Virus genome (UHGV): UHGV-1384413 | Strand: one strand, 5' to 3' | From: a virus | Length of the DNA stretch: 64,000 nucleotides | In this document: in pieces, positions 7,747 through 22,760 of the stretch | Layout of the letters: the number at the start of each line of letters is the position of its first letter | Numbering within the stretch: position 1 is the first letter of the stretch | Program-made: the position numbers and the translations under genes | The notes under the pieces: generated by a model | Database searches by the model: none | What the model was told of the DNA's origin: nothing | The model's input: the letters and a program-made list of their open reading frames with translations, nothing else

Positions 7747-8019
7747 ATGTCAAGCTGGATTAATCAAGAAGTCGAATCACGTTTTAATGCTATCTGGGAT
7801 CTCGTAGAAAAAGAGGACGGAACATCAAGCCCCTACCTCAACAATTTGGAATTCCATTTTGTGGAAGCGATGAACGCAGAACATGATCACGAAGGTGGCG
7901 CGGATGAGTTCGCTAAAGGTTATGGCTTTAACAATGCCAACGAAATGATCGAGTCGGTTGTACTCCAAGCCGAGGAAGATTATCAATTAAAAACGCTTGA
8001 ATTCTGCCGCCGCAAGTAA
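7747..8019 (+). CDS. hypothetical acidic protein (90 aa)
   Basis: ATG with AGAGAGGAAAACATT RBS after TTGACA promoter and hairpin leader. Confidence 0.55.
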   Translation: MSSWINQEVESRFNAIWDLVEKEDGTSSPYLNNLEFHFVEAMNAEHDHEGGADEFAKGYGFNNANEMIESVVLQAEEDYQLKTLEFCRRK

Positions 8020-8079
8020 TAAGATAATGACAAGGGCCGAAAGGCCCACTAATCAGAACCGCACAAAGAGGAAAACATC

Positions 8080-8343
8080 ATGAAACGTCTTGATCAGCTC
8101 AAATTAGTTCAATATATGGCTTATCGTGTTCTTGAAGTACAGAAAGGCAGCAAAAAAGAAGTTTGCGAGAAAGCGTACAAGATCTTTACTCGCAAAAAAG
8201 ACGATTGGATGTTACGCCAGACTAAAAAGGCTGACATCTTGGGGTACCTGGAAGAAGAGATCCGGCTTGAAGAACAAGAAGAGATCCGCCGTAGTGAGGC
8301 AGATTATCAGGCAGCTTGGGAAAACTGGATGAGCAACAAATAA
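8080..8343 (+). CDS. hypothetical protein (87 aa)
   Basis: ATG with AAAGAGGAAAACATC RBS. Confidence 0.55.
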   Translation: MKRLDQLKLVQYMAYRVLEVQKGSKKEVCEKAYKIFTRKKDDWMLRQTKKADILGYLEEEIRLEEQEEIRRSEADYQAAWENWMSNK

Positions 8344-13755: not shown

Positions 13756-14019
13756 TCATTTATCTTTGCCGTCAAGAACTTTTTTAAATCTCTCAGGAAT
13801 ATCTCCTGTTCTTAGATAGTTCATGACCTCACAAGGTTCCCACTTAAACTTCTTACACAGCAGGGCGGCTGAGATTGTCTCATTGCGAAAAGAAAGGATA
13901 TCAATATCCCACTCTGAGAACCCTAATTTCCGAAGAGTGGCTATAGAAATCCTCACAGCAACCCAACAAGAGAGGCACGCAACAAACGCTACTGCTACAA
14001 CCCACACCAAGATGTTCAT
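13756..14019 (-). CDS. membrane protein (N-terminal TM)
   Basis: Hydrophobic N-terminus MNILVWVVAVAFVACL. Confidence 0.5.
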   Translation of the reverse strand: MNILVWVVAVAFVACLSCWVAVRISIATLRKLGFSEWDIDILSFRNETISAALLCKKFKWEPCEVMNYLRTGDIPERFKKVLDGKDK

Positions 14020-14108
14020 ACAGCCCCCTTAATGAAATACAAGACATAGTGCCAAGGTCACTATCCCGCAAATAATTAACAGTGTCGTTGCAACCTTGGC
14101 AAGATTTA

Positions 14109-14396
14109 TCATAGCGTCTCTAAAATTTCATACCCTTCGGGTCGGAAAACAAGCCACTCAGGTGCTCCATTTGGTCGATACGCTTTATACAGAACAACCT
14201 GATCTCGGCACATACACATTGCTACATAGTTTTCATCCACACCTGCAGCCTGCATTGCATCTTCTTCTCCGGCAACCGCTTTGCTTACAACTTCCTTGGT
14301 AGGCAGGTGGGCGATCAGCTCGTCACCATCGTTAATTCCAAAATGGCTGAGTTCTCCATTGGTGTCTTTAATCTTGATCTTAACCAAATCTTTCAT
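14109..14396 (-). CDS. hypothetical protein (95 aa)
   Basis: ORF in coupled array. Confidence 0.5.
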   Translation of the reverse strand: MKDLVKIKIKDTNGELSHFGINDGDELIAHLPTKEVVSKAVAGEEDAMQAAGVDENYVAMCMCRDQVVLYKAYRPNGAPEWLVFRPEGYEILETL

Positions 14397-14725
14397 TAGT
14401 CTTCCCCCAAGTTCAAAGGTCCTAAGATCTCATATGCCAGATTAGAAGTTACCAGAGGATCTTCTGCATCTTTAGTATTATACCACCCGTGAATAACCAG
14501 AGTCCCACTTTGCTTCATGTCTAACTGGAACTGTTCTGCCGTTTCCTCATCCATCTCCAAGATCTCCATGAGGTATTTGATGTTAGGAAGGTATGCAGCT
14601 GTTACAGTCCCCTCTACTAGGCCTTCAGGCCAACCTACATCCGGATGACAAGTAGGGACCAGAGAGGTCAGCTTGATAGTGTATGCTTTTTCTGCACGAG
14701 CCTTCAGTAACGGATCAATTTTCAT
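14396..14725 (-). CDS. hypothetical protein (109 aa)
   Basis: ORF in coupled array. Confidence 0.5.
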   Translation of the reverse strand: MKIDPLLKARAEKAYTIKLTSLVPTCHPDVGWPEGLVEGTVTAAYLPNIKYLMEILEMDEETAEQFQLDMKQSGTLVIHGWYNTKDAEDPLVTSNLAYEILGPLNLGED

Positions 14726-15075
14726 TATTCTTCCTCCTCTTCGGTGCCTGCTTCCAGTAGTAAGTTAAGAACATCTTCAGCAGAAGGTTCGTAGAACTCT
14801 TGGCCTTCGTTGTCGATGATACGATAGTCATCACCACGAATAATCAGAGGATCGTTATCAAAACCTTCAAGACCTTTAACAACGACAACACGGTCGATTG
14901 CCATCATTGTAAGAACTTTATCAACATCTTCCTCTGCCACACCATACTGCAGCAGGATGTCTTTGGTAGGAGGAACAGCATCAACCACAACACCGTTACC
15001 AAAACCTTCCGGAAGTTTAGCTAAAATATCTTCCGGAACCGCATTCATATCAAAACCTGTGATCTCTACTTTCAT
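14725..15075 (-). CDS. hypothetical acidic protein (116 aa)
   Basis: ORF in coupled array; acidic C-terminal tail. Confidence 0.5.
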   Translation of the reverse strand: MKVEITGFDMNAVPEDILAKLPEGFGNGVVVDAVPPTKDILLQYGVAEEDVDKVLTMMAIDRVVVVKGLEGFDNDPLIIRGDDYRIIDNEGQEFYEPSAEDVLNLLLEAGTEEEEE

Positions 15076-15336
15076 TTACAGCACCTCTTCGTCAACTACT
15101 TCATAAAAATGGCTTGGGATTGCAATGGCGTTCTCGCCTTCACCTAAGAACACTGTCCCACTAACGATTAACATTAGAAGAACGTCTGCGATACCTTCCT
15201 CGGGTACGTTGCCAAAACCTTTAATCAGCTCGTAGGTTGGAAGATTTACCTCTAAGATGTCACCATCCTTAGAACGGAAATCAACACCGTCCTGAATCTC
15301 TGCCGTTTCAAGGTTTTTCAATTTAATCTTCATCAA
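15076..15336 (-). CDS. hypothetical acidic protein (86 aa)
   Basis: ORF in coupled array. Confidence 0.5.
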   Translation of the reverse strand: MMKIKLKNLETAEIQDGVDFRSKDGDILEVNLPTYELIKGFGNVPEEGIADVLLMLIVSGTVFLGEGENAIAIPSHFYEVVDEEVL

Positions 15337-15412
15337 TCAGTCTCCTGTCTTGTTAAGATGGAGGTATTATTGCACACAGGGTTGGTGTTGTCAACACCTG
15401 TGTGGCATAAAA

Positions 15413-15808
15413 TTACTGAAATAGTGCAGATAAATTACCTTCTGGTGGGAACTTATCTGCCAGGAATGGGGTTAGAACAGTGGCCTTCTGAATATCAGGG
15501 GTCCACTCATTGTTCAGAACATCCCAGTAGTACGCAATGTTACTGTGTGGGTGCCGCATTACGAACTTTTTCCCTTCGTAGTCAGTTGAAACCTCTACAG
15601 AAGAAATAACAACAGAGTCTTCAAGGGTTTCTTCATAGAAAGATCCACCCTCAAATTTCCAACGAGATGCAAGAGCTCCTGCCTTGAACGCTGCAGATAA
15701 CGGACTGTCTGCAAGAACATACATTTCTTGCACTCTGTCACTGCGATCTTTGCTTCTTACATTGTATACAGTATCCGAGCTATACTCAACACGGTATAGA
15801 CTTACCAT
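15413..15808 (-). CDS. hypothetical protein, paralog family A (HYW...WTP motif)
   Basis: Shares C-terminal block with ORF 17615-18013. Confidence 0.55.
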   Translation of the reverse strand: MVSLYRVEYSSDTVYNVRSKDRSDRVQEMYVLADSPLSAAFKAGALASRWKFEGGSFYEETLEDSVVISSVEVSTDYEGKKFVMRHPHSNIAYYWDVLNNEWTPDIQKATVLTPFLADKFPPEGNLSALFQ

Positions 15809-16155
15809 TACCTAACCTCCTCAATAACTTCCACATCTGAACCCACCACAAATGCAAAAGGGCAGGTTTCATGAAAGATATCCGGATCTCCACCAAGCTT
15901 GCTAACTATCTCTCCACCACTAATAAACACAAGCTCACCAATATTCATCAGATTGCTAAAATAGTAGCCATAATGATTGAAGAATGCAGCTGGGTCAGGT
16001 AGACTGGTGGCCTCAAGCTCTACATTGCTTGAGATCACTTTCTTATCATACCCTCTCGCCTTTTGAGATGCAAGATCTGCAGAGTCTTCAGGAGACCGGA
16101 GATGCACAGGAATTGTTTCACCAATAAAGCGTACTTTCATATTCTCACCCCACAA
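15808..16155 (-). CDS. hypothetical protein, paralog family B
   Basis: N- and C-terminal blocks shared with 18026-18280. Confidence 0.55.
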   Translation of the reverse strand: MWGENMKVRFIGETIPVHLRSPEDSADLASQKARGYDKKVISSNVELEATSLPDPAAFFNHYGYYFSNLMNIGELVFISGGEIVSKLGGDPDIFHETCPFAFVVGSDVEVIEEVR

Positions 16156-16408
16156 TCATAGCTTCAAAAGGTGTCATAAACGAATAAACAGCATCATCAT
16201 CTGCTTCAGGGAATGCCCCCAAAGACTTTATGTCTGATCCCTTGACAAATACAAGGTTTTGATCAAAAGCTTCTTGGGGATCAATCCGATACATATCTCG
16301 TAGGATATTGCTTACCTCCTCATCAAGAGGTGAGTATGCTGTGCACGTTTTTCCAATCAAGCTTTGAGAATCAGGGTATCCACCTGAAGTTTTAAAATAA
16401 ACAATCAT
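16145..16408 (-). CDS. hypothetical protein, probable paralog family B member
   Basis: FVKGSDIKSLGAFPE block resembles FILGSDLIAAGAPE of 18026-18280. Confidence 0.5.
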   Translation of the reverse strand: MIVYFKTSGGYPDSQSLIGKTCTAYSPLDEEVSNILRDMYRIDPQEAFDQNLVFVKGSDIKSLGAFPEADDDAVYSFMTPFEAMIVG

Positions 16409-16499
16409 ATAGTATCACCTCTGGCAAGAGATGGGGATTCCTTTCCCACAAATAATTACAAACCTTCCTTATCGAGGAAGCATGCTAATCCAAGCAGGA

Positions 16500-16769
16500 T
16501 TATTCCTCTACAATCTCATACACATCAGGAGTTACAATCAACTCTTCTCCGTTACCCGGTGCAACAAACACCACCAAGCCTTCAGGTGTGTGCTTTTTAG
16601 CCATCTCGATAACATCTTCTCGCAGAGCTGGCTCCATCAGATCAAAGCCTTCACCCAGGGCATCACGAACCACCTTCATATAGTCCACTGGTTGTGCTTC
16701 AACAATCATGCCTTCAACCAGTCCACAGTTTTTGTCTGCCAGCTCAGTTTTGAATAATTTAATTTTCAT
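16500..16769 (-). CDS. hypothetical acidic protein (89 aa)
   Basis: ORF-track ORF. Confidence 0.5.
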   Translation of the reverse strand: MKIKLFKTELADKNCGLVEGMIVEAQPVDYMKVVRDALGEGFDLMEPALREDVIEMAKKHTPEGLVVFVAPGNGEELIVTPDVYEIVEE

Positions 16770-16795
16770 TTAGAGGTCTCCTCAATTATTTGATA

Positions 16796-16897
16796 TTAAT
16801 AGCCGTAACCTAACACATTAACTACAACTACGATTGCAAACATAATTTCAAAGCATGCAATCTCTACATTTGGGACTAATTTCTTAATCATACCCAT
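16796..16897 (-). CDS. small membrane peptide (33 aa)
   Basis: ATG with GGAGAATGAGGTG RBS; hydrophobic; below ORF-track cutoff. Confidence 0.3.
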   Translation of the reverse strand: MGMIKKLVPNVEIACFEIMFAIVVVVNVLGYGY

Positions 16898-16906
16898 TGT
16901 AGCACC

Positions 16907-17224
16907 TCATTCTCCAAAGTCAATCTTTACTTTGCCTTTCCCCTTACCTTTCTTTCCACCACATTTAGCCAACTGACGTGCTGCAACATCTACCATACGG
17001 TCAGTTGCCTCGTAAGCATCACTGCCTTTAGCTTTGGCAATAACTTCTTTTCCGGAAGTGTCAAAAATGAACGCCATAACTTCCTGGTGATCATTTTCAA
17101 CTTTTACACTCACACGTGCATAGTTGGCAGAGGGGTGCAAACGCTCCAGCTTAGACATTTTGTGGGAAATGAAAGACACCATACCTTCAGTGATTTCTAC
17201 GTTGCCAGTGATTTCAATTTGCAT
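16907..17224 (-). CDS. hpf: ribosome hibernation promoting factor / RaiA-family protein
   Basis: MQIEITGNVEITEG N-terminus and DAYEATDRMVDVAARQLAK C-terminal block match the HPF/YfiA family pattern; ATG with AAGGA RBS. Confidence 0.75.
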   Translation of the reverse strand: MQIEITGNVEITEGMVSFISHKMSKLERLHPSANYARVSVKVENDHQEVMAFIFDTSGKEVIAKAKGSDAYEATDRMVDVAARQLAKCGGKKGKGKGKVKIDFGE

Positions 17225-17231
17225 AACGTGT

Positions 17232-17262
17232 TCCTTTTAAAGAAGAGGGAACCAAACCCTCT
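17232..17262 (-). terminator. rho-independent terminator
   Basis: AGAGGGA-ACCAAA-CCCTCT hairpin followed by T-rich tract on minus strand. Confidence 0.6.
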
Positions 17263-17306
17263 TTGAAAACAATGATACTAAATCTGAAGCGTTGTGTCAA
17301 CAGTTT

Positions 17307-17597
17307 TTACAGCTTGTCGTCGATAGTTTTTAAAATATCCACAGCAAGATCTGCCATTTTTCGAACATACTCTGCAAACTCAACAGGATCCTTGATCAAA
17401 GAATTCACAGGGTCGTACCCTAGAGCGTTCAAAATGGCTGCAGCATCTACAACCTTCTCATCATTTGCGAAGATCTCTCCATCAAACTTGTAGGTCCATT
17501 TTGAGTCAATCTTGGCAGAGAAGGATTGGTCAACGCTTGTTACACCATCCTTTTTAAACTCTCCAGTGTTATCAGTGTCCAGAACTAAATCCATCAT
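17307..17597 (-). CDS. hypothetical protein (96 aa)
   Basis: ORF-track ORF. Confidence 0.5.
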   Translation of the reverse strand: MMDLVLDTDNTGEFKKDGVTSVDQSFSAKIDSKWTYKFDGEIFANDEKVVDAAAILNALGYDPVNSLIKDPVEFAEYVRKMADLAVDILKTIDDKL

Positions 17598-17614
17598 GTT
17601 AGTACCTCACTGTT

Positions 17615-18013
17615 TCAGTCTAGCTTTTCTTCAACAACCCCATAACTTGGGGCAGAGTCAAGAGCTTTCTGGTTTAAAAGTGGCGTAGCAGAATCTGCAA
17701 ACGGTGTCCAAGTTTTTGTTCTGGCATTCCAGTAATGCTTCACTCTGGAATCTGGATGCACTATAACAAAAACTTTTTCACTTGTCAACACATTAATTTC
17801 TTCTACACCCTTGCTGATAATTTCTCCGTCATAGCCACCAGTCTGGTATCCTTCGTACCAGGTTCTTGCATATGCATAGCCAGCCTGCCAGCATGCAGCC
17901 TCCTCCGAGGTGGAGACTACGTAGAAGTCTTTCTCAAATTCTGGGATACGCCCTTGCTTTACGCTCCAAGACCCGCGAATTTTCATTGTAACTTTGAACA
18001 GTTTATTTTTCAC
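17615..18013 (-). CDS. hypothetical protein, paralog family A
   Basis: VIVHPDSRVKHYWNARTKTWTP block parallels 15413-15808. Confidence 0.55.
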   Translation of the reverse strand: MKNKLFKVTMKIRGSWSVKQGRIPEFEKDFYVVSTSEEAACWQAGYAYARTWYEGYQTGGYDGEIISKGVEEINVLTSEKVFVIVHPDSRVKHYWNARTKTWTPFADSATPLLNQKALDSAPSYGVVEEKLD

Positions 18014-18025
18014 AACGGTTACCCC

Positions 18026-18280
18026 TCACAGCTCTACAATCTCTGCATCTGACCCTGCCCCAAAGGCATAATAGGATTCTTCCCCGAAATAATATTCCGG
18101 TGCACCAGCAGCGATCAGGTCTGATCCCAAGATAAACACCACGTTGTGGCCTACATAACTGTGATGTTGCCGCACAGGATCATCCCACGGCAACCCTTCA
18201 AAGTATACCGCAGGAACGACCTTTCCATTCAGGAAGGATTGTCCCAAGTAGACGTTAGAATCAAGAATTTTAACCTTCAT
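18026..18280 (-). CDS. hypothetical protein, paralog family B (DLIAAGA motif)
   Basis: MKVK N-terminus and GSDLIAAGA block shared with 18270-18497 and 21805-22053. Confidence 0.55.
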   Translation of the reverse strand: MKVKILDSNVYLGQSFLNGKVVPAVYFEGLPWDDPVRQHHSYVGHNVVFILGSDLIAAGAPEYYFGEESYYAFGAGSDAEIVEL

Positions 18281-18497
18281 TCTCGTCCTCCACTATCTCT
18301 ACATCCTCACCAAGGGCAAAGTTGTAGGTCCACTGACTGTCAAAGCAGTCCTGAGATGCACCAGCGGCAATAAGATCTGCACCTTTTATTTTTAAAAGGT
18401 CAGGATAATCTTCGTTAGGGATAGCGGTAAACACTTTCCCCACTAAGGGCTCCTGACCAATATAGAAGCTTGAATCTAAAACTTTAACTTTCATCAA
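18270..18497 (-). CDS. hypothetical protein, paralog family B
   Basis: MMKVKVLD and GADLIAAGA blocks. Confidence 0.55.
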   Translation of the reverse strand: MMKVKVLDSSFYIGQEPLVGKVFTAIPNEDYPDLLKIKGADLIAAGASQDCFDSQWTYNFALGEDVEIVEDENEG

Positions 18498-18778
18498 CGG
18501 TCTCCCTCAGGCGGTTGTGGAACGTAAACACTGTTACGAATCTCGTCAGCAGTGTAGTAACAAGTTTTCCCCTCTCTGCCCCTGGCAGCAATGTATTCAG
18601 CTATACCAATAAGTGCCATAGCCTTGGTGGCGTATCTCTTAAGCTCGTTAGCTCCCCAGCAAAATCTCTGCCAAAACGGTATGAAACCGAATAGGTACAC
18701 CTTCTGTTTCACTATCCAATAAGTTCCTTTACAGATCACTTTAAACTCTGCAGCACTATTGCTAACACCATTGCTCAT
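18494..18778 (-). CDS. hypothetical protein (94 aa)
   Basis: ORF in coupled array. Confidence 0.5.
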   Translation of the reverse strand: MSNGVSNSAAEFKVICKGTYWIVKQKVYLFGFIPFWQRFCWGANELKRYATKAMALIGIAEYIAARGREGKTCYYTADEIRNSVYVPQPPEGDR

Positions 18779-18790
18779 TATCTTCTCCTT

Positions 18791-19111
18791 TTATTTTTCT
18801 GGGTTTGGCAGATATTGCACATTGGCAGGAGGAACACCGGATAGCTCCCAAACAACCATAGTGCTGTACCCTGGCACACTTCTAACATTTAAAAGAGTAG
18901 GAGCACCAACACATTTAAACTTCCTTTTCCCAAATCCGTTCTCCATCATAACCCAGTATCCGGTATCCTGATCACCGGGAATTTGTGTTCCATCATCGTC
19001 CACCCAGCGGACGGTCCATTTCGATACAGCAACGGCTCGGTATTTAAACTTTTTAAACCACTCAAACAGTTTCATCTTCAGCCTCGCTTGGCAGCCCTTC
19101 CATTTTGACAT
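18791..19111 (-). CDS. hypothetical protein (start may be internal ATG at 19075)
   Basis: ORF-track ORF overlapping upstream gene by 50 nt. Confidence 0.45.
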   Translation of the reverse strand: MSKWKGCQARLKMKLFEWFKKFKYRAVAVSKWTVRWVDDDGTQIPGDQDTGYWVMMENGFGKRKFKCVGAPTLLNVRSVPGYSTMVVWELSGVPPANVQYLPNPEK

Positions 19112-19259
19112 ACCGGAAAGTGTTGCCGTAATAGTTGATCCATGACATCAGCTCACTTTCTTGCTCTTCCTCTGGGATGGACTCTCTAACGCTGACAAGT
19201 TTTAAGAAAACCCAATCACAATCCACCCCCATCCTACCAGACAGACAATAGTGCTTCAT
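19062..19259 (-). CDS. hypothetical protein (65 aa)
   Basis: ORF-track ORF. Confidence 0.45.
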   Translation of the reverse strand: MKHYCLSGRMGVDCDWVFLKLVSVRESIPEEEQESELMSWINYYGNTFRYVKMEGLPSEAEDETV

Positions 19260-19277
19260 AAAACCCTCCCGCCTGGT

Positions 19278-19472
19278 TTAGAATATTGCTTCTTCCATTG
19301 CACCTGAGAGCAACAAAGAGGTAATCTGGCTAACATTCATCTCAGACTCCACTTCCTCTCCTTTGAAAGGTTCGCGGCAGAATAGGACTGTTTCAGGATT
19401 TTTACTTCGAACAATATAATACAAATCATTCAAAGTGTTGTAGTAATAAGTGTTAAAATGTAAGTTTTTCAT
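19278..19472 (-). CDS. hypothetical protein (64 aa)
   Basis: ORF-track ORF. Confidence 0.45.
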   Translation of the reverse strand: MKNLHFNTYYYNTLNDLYYIVRSKNPETVLFCREPFKGEEVESEMNVSQITSLLLSGAMEEAIF

Positions 19473-19756
19473 TTTCTAGTCCCCTTTTTAGATTTTTGTG
19501 CAGAAACGCTTTCTGCAATACGAGACAGGCGTTCTTCTGAAGCTTTACCTACCCCAGGTTTCTTGAGCGGGTTATCTTTATGACCGCAATCCAATTGGAT
19601 GCTAGATACATCCCCAACCTTGTAAGTCAATTCTAGCAAAAGGTTGTCGTCCTTGTCAAATGTTTTTACGATAAATTTTTTATCGTCCTCCTTAACTTCA
19701 TATCTAGTACCTGCAGTATACAGCATGGTGCCATCAGCGTAGGATATCCAGATCAT
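19469..19756 (-). CDS. hypothetical protein (95 aa)
   Basis: ORF in coupled array. Confidence 0.5.
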   Translation of the reverse strand: MIWISYADGTMLYTAGTRYEVKEDDKKFIVKTFDKDDNLLLELTYKVGDVSSIQLDCGHKDNPLKKPGVGKASEERLSRIAESVSAQKSKKGTRK

Positions 19757-20100
19757 TGCACCTCCTTCTGCTGCAACAGCATCAACTCTTTGTTGGAAAT
19801 CTTTACTGCTGTCTTTATTGTCCCATCTTCACGGAACCACGACCAGAATTCTACAGTATCACCACTATCAAGCAAGGCATGACCATGGTAAAAATCTTTG
19901 TCCTTAGACAGTTTCTCATCTATATCTGCATCGACACATTCGTGATCCATAGCATTCTGCCTGAATGCATCGGTTATGCCAATGCACGCCTTACTCTCAA
20001 GGCTGGTATACCCAATATCTTTTAATTCAGTTTCCCAAGTCCAGTATCCTACAAAAGCTACAACAGCCACCCACATTAATATAGATTTAATCTTTGACAT
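19753..20100 (-). CDS. membrane-anchored protein (N-terminal TM)
   Basis: Hydrophobic N-terminus SILMWVAVVAFVGYWTW. Confidence 0.5.
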   Translation of the reverse strand: MSKIKSILMWVAVVAFVGYWTWETELKDIGYTSLESKACIGITDAFRQNAMDHECVDADIDEKLSKDKDFYHGHALLDSGDTVEFWSWFREDGTIKTAVKISNKELMLLQQKEVQ

Positions 20101-20160
20101 TCTCTCTACCTCTTTCTTAGTTTATTTAGTTATGGCACATCCTTTGTGCCATAATGCACA

Positions 20161-20622
20161 TTACTTAAACAACAGTTCAAAATAGTGCAAAATTAACAGA
20201 AGTTGAATTACGCCTAGCACAACTGCAAGTATGTTGATCTTAGAATCAAAAAACTTCTTAACTTTTACCCTAAAAGGCTCCTTAATGTCCTTTACGATCC
20301 TATTTATAGATGATTTCATATCCCTGATTACCATCCTAAACATTAGAGACGGATCTTCCTTCTCTGTAACGGAATCGAAAACATACTCTCTTCGGTCATA
20401 AGGACCTCCAGATCTGCGTATTAACCTCTCCACAGATACCTCGTACGACACACCTGTAACGTAATCATCTATGACAAGTAGTGACGGGTCTTTATCGTCC
20501 AAAGGTATCAAAGTTATCTTTCCAGATTTTGTTAAAATTTCTCCTTTTTCAAGCAGTGTGTACCAATGCTCTCTACCAAGGTTGTTGAGGCACGTTTTTA
20601 CATATTTAACAAACATCGTCAC
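20161..20622 (-). CDS. hypothetical protein with C-terminal hydrophobic segment (153 aa)
   Basis: ORF-track ORF. Confidence 0.5.
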   Translation of the reverse strand: MTMFVKYVKTCLNNLGREHWYTLLEKGEILTKSGKITLIPLDDKDPSLLVIDDYVTGVSYEVSVERLIRRSGGPYDRREYVFDSVTEKEDPSLMFRMVIRDMKSSINRIVKDIKEPFRVKVKKFFDSKINILAVVLGVIQLLLILHYFELLFK

Positions 20623-20822
20623 CCCTCATCGCACGTCTGATATAGCCATTCTATGAAATCTTGATACCACTCTCCCTCTGAGCGCTCCGTAGGCCAATAA
20701 TCTTCCCCCTCTCTTGCATTAAAATCTGAGTATTCAACTTTCCACTCCTTTACCAGCTCGTGGAGAAGGTTTTCAGCCTGTTCTAAGGATTTATTTTTTG
20801 TCATTACTGTCCCCTTTTTCAA
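20619..20822 (-). CDS. hypothetical protein (67 aa)
   Basis: ORF in coupled array. Confidence 0.45.
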   Translation of the reverse strand: MKKGTVMTKNKSLEQAENLLHELVKEWKVEYSDFNAREGEDYWPTERSEGEWYQDFIEWLYQTCDEG

Positions 20823-21039
20823 GATAATTATACATCAGCGCCGCGCCACCTAAAATGGCTACCAGCAGTAATACCCCAGAGAGCATTTCAATAAACATGG
20901 CTTGAAACATTAGAAGGCCCCCTAATTTCACGCACCATTTTAAATACATATTCTTTTCCCATAAAGGTGCCCGGCTAAGATCTGCGTAGAATGCAATCTC
21001 TTTAAGAACAGTATAAACAGTTTTAGGTGCGGTATCCAT
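20791..21039 (-). CDS. membrane protein (82 aa)
   Basis: Internal ATG at 21039 preceded by AAGGAGAG; hydrophobic C-terminal half. Confidence 0.5.
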   Translation of the reverse strand: MDTAPKTVYTVLKEIAFYADLSRAPLWEKNMYLKWCVKLGGLLMFQAMFIEMLSGVLLLVAILGGAALMYNYLEKGDSNDKK

Positions 21040-21259
21040 CCCTACTCTCCTTTTTCCCCTTACGGATATTCTTGTGGTAATCAACTAGGCACATTATTAC
21101 GATGAAGATAACAACAGGCCAAAAGGGCGCAGCAGTGATGATGGTGATAAAATCATCAAACTTCACCCTTCGTGTAGACACGATGCATATACCTGCCAAG
21201 ATTACTGCTGTTAGAACAGCTACTACCAGGTAACCTATCAGCACAGCATCTATACTCAT
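21023..21259 (-). CDS. membrane protein (78 aa)
   Basis: Two hydrophobic segments. Confidence 0.5.
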   Translation of the reverse strand: MSIDAVLIGYLVVAVLTAVILAGICIVSTRRVKFDDFITIITAAPFWPVVIFIVIMCLVDYHKNIRKGKKESRDGYRT

Positions 21260-21277
21260 TGGCTCCTCCTTTGTAGG

Positions 21278-21823
21278 TTAAATTGTACACTGCAGGTGGT
21301 TGCCGAGGGTGTCAAGAAAATTATCCCGTTCTTTCTCAGAGTTTTCATGGGTGTAGCTGAAAAACATATCTAGAATAACCTTATTGATATATTCCAGCTC
21401 CTCTGTGTTCAGGTACTTAGCAGGATCTACAATGACATCCCAAATATCATACAAACCGCACTCATGATACCCCCAACGCCGCTCAATTGTCAAACTGAGC
21501 GGCAAATCTTTACCATCACAAACAACCTTCCATCTGCAGATGTTGGTATCTGGACGTACCTGTGTACGGTATACCTGTACAAAATCCAATTTGAATTGGA
21601 GGTACTCGTCATACAATTTAAGTACAAAACTCTCGATTTGTGGAGATACTTTTGCAGCAAACTGTGCGTATTTGTACTTGCACTGGATGATCTTTCTGCG
21701 TTTTGCAGTTAAATTTTTTGCAGCCAGTTGTTCTTCAGTGTACCTCCACCTACGATCAACAAACGCAACAGGGTCTTTGTCCCCATAGAGGTCTTCCCAG
21801 TTAATCAGAAGCATACCTGCCAC
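21278..21823 (-). CDS. hypothetical protein (181 aa)
   Basis: ORF-track ORF. Confidence 0.55.
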   Translation of the reverse strand: MAGMLLINWEDLYGDKDPVAFVDRRWRYTEEQLAAKNLTAKRRKIIQCKYKYAQFAAKVSPQIESFVLKLYDEYLQFKLDFVQVYRTQVRPDTNICRWKVVCDGKDLPLSLTIERRWGYHECGLYDIWDVIVDPAKYLNTEELEYINKVILDMFFSYTHENSEKERDNFLDTLGNHLQCTI

Positions 21824-22053
21824 TCCTCCACAACTTCAAGGCCTTTGCCGCCTCGTTCTGGTAGATTACTTAAAGACAGGTAATACGTATAGTCAGGAGA
21901 GATCCTGCCAGACTCTGCACCTGCAGCTAGTAAATCTTTTCCCTTAACCATGACAACATTATCGTTTGCAGATAGCCGTTTTGCTTCCACAATTTTACCA
22001 ACGCAGTCAACCAAGGAAGGGTACCCTAAATCTGTAAGAAATTTAACTTTCAT
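21805..22053 (-). CDS. hypothetical protein, paralog family B
   Basis: MKVK start and KDLLAAGA block. Confidence 0.55.
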   Translation of the reverse strand: MKVKFLTDLGYPSLVDCVGKIVEAKRLSANDNVVMVKGKDLLAAGAESGRISPDYTYYLSLSNLPERGGKGLEVVEEWQVCF

Positions 22054-22092
22054 GCTACCTCCTGCTTTTACCGTCCCTGGTAAGATAAATTA

Positions 22093-22491
22093 TTACTGAA
22101 CAGATCGCGGAGCTGGGAAGGATAACTCTTCTAAAGAGAAGATTTCATTTCCCACAATCCATGTTGCCGGATCATCCGGGTTGACTGGATAGATAATCAT
22201 CACCTCGTCCGTGTTACATACTCGCTTTTTACCTGTGGAGTTATCAGCAACTAGCATGCGAGGCTCTTCAGAGATACACAAGTATCCACCACGTCCAACT
22301 GTCCCTTCTACAGGATCCTGGCCTTTTATCACGATGAATATCTTCTCTCCTGAGGTGATATTACCTTGCACACTCACCGTTTGACCAACCTTGGATGTGC
22401 CAATCTTAGTGACTTCGAACATTACATCACGGATAACTGTTGCATAGTTACCAGAGACTTTCTTACCTTCTTCAGTAATCTCAATCTTCAT
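22093..22491 (-). CDS. hypothetical protein (132 aa)
   Basis: ORF-track ORF. Confidence 0.5.
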   Translation of the reverse strand: MKIEITEEGKKVSGNYATVIRDVMFEVTKIGTSKVGQTVSVQGNITSGEKIFIVIKGQDPVEGTVGRGGYLCISEEPRMLVADNSTGKKRVCNTDEVMIIYPVNPDDPATWIVGNEIFSLEELSFPAPRSVQ

Positions 22492-22760
22492 AATCTAGGC
22501 TCCTTAAATGAATCTATATAGTCAATTAAATCCCAAGCATCCCTATGACCTGTCAGAGGGTATACTTCTCCAAGAGGGATCATAGCAATAAGCCTATCAA
22601 AAACCCAGTCTGGACGCAACATTTTATGATGATATTCCCACTCACCTTCCACAGATTTTTTCTGAGTGATCAGAATCTCTGTGTAGTGTTTTGCCTGTCT
22701 TGAGTAAATTGAAAATGACTTATACATAGATGACCCCCTCTTGTTGAAAACAAAATACAC
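22488..22760 (-). CDS. hypothetical protein (90 aa)
   Basis: ORF in coupled array. Confidence 0.5.
   Translation of the reverse strand: MYFVFNKRGSSMYKSFSIYSRQAKHYTEILITQKKSVEGEWEYHHKMLRPDWVFDRLIAMIPLGEVYPLTGHRDAWDLIDYIDSFKEPRL

Follow-up and report, generated by a model that had tools for sequence, protein, structure and literature searches.

The window analysed here, a stretch of 64,000 nucleotides from the virus genome UHGV-1384413, represents a Vequintavirus, an rV5-like myophage of Escherichia coli. We found that 12 of the ~28 genes between 14.1 and 22.1 kb belong to three families of small proteins, A (two members), B (five members) and C (five members), which are truly paralogous and derive from gene duplication. 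The best overall explanation, which we hold to be probable, is that these three families are old and have been stably kept within an accessory block of the genome, and that family B adopts the fold of an SH3-like barrel.

The genomes of rV5-like myophages have a size of ~137 kb. The region 14,000–22,500 of the window is 90–97.5% identical to 122 phage records, almost all of them Escherichia phages of the genus Vequintavirus, with phage NHEP1 as the best-identity relative (97.5%). The GC skew and the layout of the open reading frames (ORFs) indicate leftward transcription from ~12.3 kb to 48 kb; the family genes, the hibernation factor gene, the deleted genes and the two promoters described below are all on the minus strand. 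According to the rV5 genome paper, this leftward unit opens with replication and nucleotide-metabolism genes. The 14–22 kb block makes up the distal and accessory portion of this long unit.

Three families of paralogous small proteins

Three members of family B, located at 18026–18280 (84 amino acids, rV5 ORF141), 18270–18497 (74–75 amino acids, rV5 ORF140, probably starting at the ATG at 18494) and 21805–22053 (82 amino acids, rV5 ORF127), match the PHROG profile phrog_5009 with E-values of 4e-32, 4e-37 and 3e-36, respectively. The other two are the gene at 16145–16408 (87 amino acids, rV5 ORF147), which has a helical insertion, belongs to phrog_13920 and matches phrog_5009 weakly (1.5e-4), and the gene at 15808–16140 (110 amino acids, rV5 ORF148, phrog_13661), in which a long insertion separates strands 2 and 3. 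The ORF of the latter extends to a TTG at 16155, and the gene probably starts at the ATG at 16140 because the PHROG alignment begins at residue 6 and the relatives annotate 333 nucleotides. A sequence-only reading of the window had named these five ORFs together with the two of family A, and we found all seven in place on the minus strand. The MKVK start and the GSDLIAAGA-like block that it had ascribed to family B were recovered as an MKV N-terminus and a GxDLIAAGA-like block, which is degenerate in 16145 (GSDIKSLGA) and in 15808 (GGEIVSKLGG).

In pairwise BLAST, 18026 and 18270 share 42% identity with 54.7 bits, and 18270 and 21805 score 34.7 bits; the pairs of 16145 and 15808 reach merely 23–28 bits. 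Several pairs at such low scores, and the presence of MKIK and EIVEE end motifs in non-members such as 22093–22491, are what could be expected if the similarity arose by chance or composition among short acidic MKVK ORFs, which perhaps might not even be genes. We consider this extremely improbable, as it is refuted by hhalign, by leave-one-out hidden Markov models (HMMs) and by the ratios of nonsynonymous to synonymous substitution rates (dN/dS), which are well below 1. With all 458 ORFs of the window as the background, the omitted B gene was each time the sole significant match to the HMM of the others (E-values between 7e-5 and 4e-15; 7e-5 for 15808, 5e-7 for 16145 and 5e-15 for 18026), and the best non-member appeared at E ~1. 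Comparison of ortholog-group profiles with hhalign joined the five members in a chain with 88–98% probability, including 88.5% for 15808–18026 and 89% for 16145 against both 21805 and 18026. The membership of 16145 and 15808, whose pairwise scores are low, is thus settled by hhalign and the leave-one-out HMMs. The weakest member is 15808, which has no phrog_5009 match at E<=0.01 and is joined via the same two methods. The independent PHROG profiles agree with the grouping, a common fold is predicted with confidence, and 22093–22491, which starts with MKIEI, was correctly rejected as belonging to no family (hhalign probability <4%). No extra B member was found in the window with an HMM of the five B paralogs.

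Family A consists of the genes at 15413–15808 (copy 1, A1; 131 amino acids, rV5 ORF149/gp144) and 17615–18013 (copy 2, A2; 132 amino acids from a GTG start, rV5 ORF142/gp137). Both match phrog_7379 end to end, with E-values of 6.4e-66 (profile positions 1–131 of 131) and 1.6e-73, respectively. In BLAST, the copies align over 118 amino acids with 28% identity (43.5 bits; E-value of 9e-10 in a smaller set of 34 proteins and 1.5e-6 among the 458 window ORFs) and have 35 invariant positions in common, among them a [HY]YW-x6-WTP block corresponding to the HYW...W-TP block noticed earlier. A WW domain was considered for the YW-x6-WTP element and rejected, since there is no Pfam match and the tryptophans are 7 residues apart instead of the expected 20–22. 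Single-sequence tblastn found only the two ortholog groups of family A, which appears to be confined to this phage group.

Family C, absent from the sequence-only reading, was recognised here with five members, four of which form an unbroken tandem array. The array comprises the genes at 14109–14396 (95 amino acids; leave-one-out E-value of 1.6e-5; hhalign probability to C15076, the member starting at 15076, of 39%), 14396–14725 (109 amino acids; 2e-6; hhalign to C14725 85.5%), 14725–15075 (C14725; 116 amino acids; 7e-9; hhalign to C15076 91.8%; phrog_12155) and 15076–15336 (C15076; 85–86 amino acids; 6e-6; phrog_12359). The fifth member, C16500, is located at 16500–16769, just upstream of the first of the two gene cassettes described below (89 amino acids; 4e-4; hhalign to C15076 56%; phrog_11868). 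The family as a whole is thereby held together by leave-one-out E-values of 4e-4 to 7e-9 and hhalign probabilities of up to 92%. Many neighbouring genes start with MKIK and end with YEIVEE, which makes them candidates for the family C test. By single-sequence tblastn, family C was found within this genus only, where C16500 is 97–100% identical over 118 phage genomes. The alleles of C15076 in the genus fall into classes, with 24 records at 95–99% identity, 93 at 80–90% and 2 at <60%, a distribution that hints at mosaic exchange at the 15076–15336 locus. Families B and C could not be traced to a common origin, the merged C and merged B profiles aligning with 10% probability over the first two strands only.

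The proposal of paralogous small-protein families is therefore well founded, backed by BLAST, profile–profile comparison and leave-one-out HMMs. Part of the grouping already exists in PHROGs, which places both A copies in one family (phrog_7379) and three B copies in another (phrog_5009), as we do. PHROGs differs in splitting family B three ways (phrog_5009, phrog_13920 and phrog_13661) and in keeping the C genes apart (phrog_11868, phrog_12359 and phrog_12155), so the wider B and C relationships go beyond the existing grouping. The full-length PHROG matches of the window proteins have E-values of 1e-32 to 1e-74 and are all labelled 'unknown function'. Ten of the 12 family proteins have isoelectric points (pI) of 4.05–4.85 and net charges of -6 to -21, with C14725 having a net charge of -21 and a pI of 4.05. 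BLAST at E<1e-4 revealed no further paralog pairs in the 64 kb window.

Predicted fold and distribution of family B

We modelled family B with AlphaFold2 on an alignment of 20 paralogs and relatives. The model reached a predicted local distance difference test (pLDDT) score of 92.3 and a predicted template modelling (pTM) score of 0.80; it shows five strands, and the GxDLIAAGA block falls in a short helix. Family B is accordingly predicted to be a free-standing SH3-like five-stranded β-barrel, partly open, of ~60–70 residues, in which the conserved G-x-D-L-I-A-A-G-A segment makes up the short helix and the loop following strand 3. Its resemblance to known SH3-like barrels, such as PsaE, the KOW domains of Spt5/NusG, SH3 domains and the C-terminal domain of retroviral integrase, comes with sequence identities of 4–21%. 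Unlike these proteins, family B has the GxDLIAAGA helix after strand 3, is free-standing and is acidic, and the fold resemblance assigns no ligand. Neither Pfam SH3 or KOW nor any other Pfam family matched the B proteins at E<=1 or their distant relatives at E<=0.1.

Every match of the B model in a viral structure library was to an uncharacterised protein of a phage (Merlin, RB49, Sf20, CS01 and others). An exhaustive profile search retrieved 49 representative clusters at E<=1e-3, mostly of 65–85 amino acids and all uncharacterised, and some of these chains hold two to three B domains. One B copy is found in E. coli lambdoid prophages (8001–8228 in both prophage loci L004 and L005) and in phages mEp010 and mEp021, within an accessory group of small genes flanked by the Q antiterminator and the holin.

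The B gene at 21805 stands alone, 3.3 kb upstream of the second cassette, and its product is 51% identical to the lambdoid-prophage protein P0032, with which it groups at 81% bootstrap, compared with 32–35% identity to its own paralogs. Being nearer to a prophage protein than to its paralogs, it lies outside the tandem expansion in which it had previously been counted. It is probably linked to the prophages by horizontal exchange; virulent and temperate phages of E. coli thus seem to have exchanged genes. In the window, this ORF overlaps the next gene by 19 nucleotides, and the relatives encode a 77-residue product ending in VVEE; in comparison, the C-terminus encoded in the window genome is slightly longer.

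Vibrio phage CHOED (L003, 3557–4409) contains two adjacent B-like units, so that a tandem arrangement of B genes also exists in a phage unrelated to the window. The first unit, a complete B-like domain with an internal Met as its start, forms the end of a coding sequence annotated as an HNH endonuclease, which could be a true fusion or an artefact of annotation. The second B-like gene follows with an overlap of 11 nucleotides. The same 11-nucleotide overlap exists between the 18270 gene and the next B gene in the window. The overlap probably just follows from the conserved MKVK start, in which ATGAARGTTAA holds an out-of-frame TAA, and it is therefore no evidence for shared ancestry of the pairs.

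Age and mode of the duplications

The paralogs are 28–42% identical, and the closest pair, at 42%, indicates that recent duplicates are absent. The age of family B can be judged from a more distant lineage represented by L009 and L010, which are contigs from a Sequence Read Archive run and from the E. coli assembly GCA_034560175.1. They are syntenic with the window, and their proteins are 28–87% identical to those of the window; no counterpart at such identities occurs among the matched phage-collection records, so this lineage is apparently unsampled. The five B genes and A1 (40% identity in L009) are present in it as one-to-one positional orthologs, and the B expansion is therefore older than that split. 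A2 is missing from L009/L010, with an unrelated gene of 96 amino acids in its place. The duplications are thus ancient and local, the copies having diverged to their present distances and then become fixed.

The order A-B-B had been reported to occur twice and to indicate a segmental duplication. The gene order does recur, although on the coding strand it reads B-B-A, with 16145, 15808 and A1 forming cassette 1 and 18270, 18026 and A2 forming cassette 2. A simple duplication of the three-gene unit could not be shown from the sequences. The DNA of the two cassettes shows no similarity (best E-value of 0.11), and in the divergent lineage the second B-B pair stands without its A gene. When the B proteins were placed in a neighbour-joining tree (69 columns), the paralogs of the window each paired with their positional orthologs at 95–100% support, and higher up the tree, 16145 joins 15808 (81% support) and 18026 joins 18270 (30%). 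The closest relatives thus tend to be within a cassette and not at matching positions in the two cassettes. The hhalign scores show the same pattern, with 78 for the within-cassette pair 18026–18270 against 27–37 for every between-cassette pair. Yet it is unlikely that the B-B-A order arose twice at random. A B-A or B-B-A unit may have been duplicated long ago, and gene conversion between neighbours could mask the original segmental event and reconcile the gene order with the tree.

Selection, gene content and rare turnover

The sequence-only reading had seen in these genes a locus of repeated duplication and divergence under host-interaction pressure. We compared the window with four members of the genus (L001, L007, L008 and L011) by pairwise Nei–Gojobori dN/dS. 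The ratios were 0.04–0.14 for family A (0.04 for A1 and 0.05–0.14 for A2), 0.02–0.19 for family C and 0.04–0.15 for family B (0.04–0.08 for 15808), with values up to 0.36 for 18026, where there are very few substitutions. For the ClpP-like protease gene and the nearby methyltransferase gene, the ratios were 0.04 and 0.01, respectively. The A and B proteins are 92–100% identical within the genus. Gene content and copy number, which we followed among the related phages, are the same in 115 of the 122 genomes, these records carrying >=80% of the 8.5 kb region. Each paralog is therefore a distinct gene under purifying selection at a fixed position throughout the genus.

Ongoing duplication with rapid divergence in an arms race with the host is, in our estimate, unlikely. 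It would agree with the accessory nature of the region, in which deletions and gene fusions occur, and with the divergence from the deeper lineage, where the A, B and C proteins are 28–75% identical in comparison with 85% for the nearby methyltransferase. The BASEL phages with deletions in this span are also those reported to be sensitive to the RosmerTA defence system, so the block may hold anti-defence genes. But the neighbouring single-copy small genes have diverged to a similar extent (32–88% identity to the deeper lineage), the dN/dS ratios are mostly 0.02–0.19 within the genus, the gene content is nearly constant, the five B copies already existed before the divergent lineage split off, and no duplicate pair is closer than 42%. 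Neither raised dN/dS nor variable copy number, the marks of diversifying selection, was observed in these pairwise comparisons and records.

Stable retention of the three families does not preclude change, which still happens, though rarely, by recombination between neighbouring B genes and by deletion. The independent assemblies L007 and L008 (6001–6213 in both, equivalent to 18026–18497 of the window) have, instead of the two cassette-2 B genes, a single hybrid of 70 amino acids, with 231 bp deleted. Its N-terminal part comes from 18270 and its C-terminal part from 18026, joined within the shared GADLIAAGA-coding stretch, the result of unequal homologous recombination. BASEL phage EduardKellenberger (Bas59) lacks window positions 17,701–21,417; of A2, the first 99 codons are gone and the remaining 33 are fused to the 21278–21823 gene. 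Since this phage is viable, growth on E. coli K-12 requires neither cassette 2 nor about a dozen further genes. In phage V18 (L014, 2009–2607, equivalent to 15808–16408), both cassette-1 B genes are shortened, to 46 and 59 amino acids, with the length of the region almost unchanged. These may be true pseudogenes or frameshifts, or they may be sequencing errors.

Among the database records of this region, 18 with MG0656xx accessions are labelled 'Campylobacter phage' with Campylobacter jejuni as the host and are 91–92% identical to this rV5-like region. The host label looks doubtful.

Promoters and the hibernation factor

Between 11 and 26 kb, all 12 sigma-70-like matches with >=10 of the 12 consensus positions are on the coding strand, 11 of them with a perfect TTGACA -35 box and several of them intergenic. 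Two agree with promoters annotated in the rV5 record. The first, P150, is at 15366–15394 in the gap before the C array (TTGACA, spacer of 17 nucleotides, AATAAT, TG extension), and the second, P144, is at 17272–17300 (TTGACA, spacer of 17 nucleotides, TATCAT). The rV5 genome paper counts 33 such promoters genome-wide and makes no mention of paralogs or duplications. The description of the block as an early gene array is plausible in view of these coding-strand promoters, including P144 and P150, with 'early' standing for matches to a consensus, and early transcription by the host polymerase would be consistent with them.

P144 precedes a gene for a ribosome hibernation factor (HPF/RaiA) at 16907–17224, located between the two B-B-A cassettes, with a match to Pfam Ribosomal_S30AE in relatives and 96–99% identity in the genus. 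Its position might suggest that family B, and perhaps family C, attach to nucleic acid or to the ribosome as KOW or Sm domains do and reprogramme translation or transcription together with the hibernation factor. The structure model of family A, which resembles ribosomal protein eL20/LX, would fit as well, but it is too poor for its fold matches to be trusted. There is no match to Pfam KOW or a related family, and the proteins are strongly acidic (net charge of -7 to -21), which speaks against direct contacts with RNA or DNA. Because of this acidity, we rank the idea lower and regard it as very unlikely.

Possible functions and the RosmerTA lead

The reading of three old and stably kept families invites a proposal about function, which we offer tentatively as a possibility: the proteins might be early protein-binding modules. 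The host sigma-70 RNA polymerase would transcribe the block early in infection, and the small proteins would then bind proteins of the host or of its defences stoichiometrically, as inhibitors, decoys or adaptors. All copies would be retained because each paralog would have its own target. Unrelated phages and prophages do contain the B module, as tandem genes in some phages and with two to three copies in one chain in some proteins.

Comparable blocks of small early genes exist in other large lytic phages, such as the host-takeover module of Bacillus phage SPO1 and the early regions of T4 and T5. The block described here resembles them in its dense small genes annotated without function, in its repeated strong host-type promoters and in the individual dispensability of its genes. 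It differs in that no sequence relationship exists and in that 12 of its ~28 genes can be assigned to no more than three families of paralogs. Among small acidic inhibitors from phages, other examples are known, for example T7 Gp2, which acts on RNA polymerase, and phi29 p56, which acts on uracil-DNA glycosylase. Their comparison with family A is a lead only, as it comes from a model of pLDDT 52 in which higher-ranked matches are to unrelated ribosomal and PurS proteins.

Several points weigh against our reading. Sequence searches of Pfam, NCBIfam and the PDB with families A, B and C and with the neighbouring genes returned nothing, and no experiment or annotated homolog assigns a function to the A, B and C proteins. 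The structure model of family A is poor. The tree that shows the within-cassette pairing has 69 columns, one of its two pairs being weakly supported (30%). No Vequintavirus transcriptome was found in the literature, so 'early' refers to promoter matches alone. Strong purifying selection and an unvarying number of copies would be equally compatible with a housekeeping function in phage development that matters only outside the laboratory.

The RosmerTA coincidence concerns a narrower interval. BASEL phage MaxBurger (Bas54) lacks window positions ~18,790–20,586, and the interval missing in both MaxBurger and EduardKellenberger is 18,790–20,586, with six minus-strand genes, none of which belongs to family A, B or C. 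These are 18791–19111, 19062–19259, 19278–19472, 19469–19756, 19753–20100 and 20161–20622, and none has a Pfam match. According to the main text of the report on this defence system (PMC10440598), Bas54 and Bas59 are the only BASEL phages blocked by RosmerTA; the figure legend swaps Bas59 and Bas60 relative to the main text (PMC10440598). The BASEL Vequintaviruses that we found to have deletions in this region are exactly Bas54 and Bas59, and at least nine of the other ten cover the whole 8.5 kb query. One of the six genes may therefore protect against RosmerTA, making the interval a candidate anti-Rosmer locus.

One could go further and see the block as an anti-defence or host-takeover island, in which family B, and perhaps C and A, would be diversified SH3-like binders, of the kind reused in lambdoid prophages, T4-like phages and Vibrio phages, with a separate host or defence protein neutralised by each. 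They would stand together with an anti-RosmerTA gene among the six non-family genes at 18.8–20.6 kb. We regard this extended view as fairly unlikely.

Conclusions

The rV5-like phages are among the commonest E. coli phage isolates and are used in biocontrol and in therapy cocktails, and ~40% of this gene block has no annotation. Twelve 'hypothetical' genes are reduced here to three families, one of them with a confidently predicted fold, which makes experiments at the level of families sensible. The coincidence with RosmerTA sensitivity is a testable lead to a new anti-defence gene. The family genes themselves are not fast-evolving arms-race loci and should not serve as host-range markers. Old duplicated families of small genes are an ordinary feature of large phage genomes.

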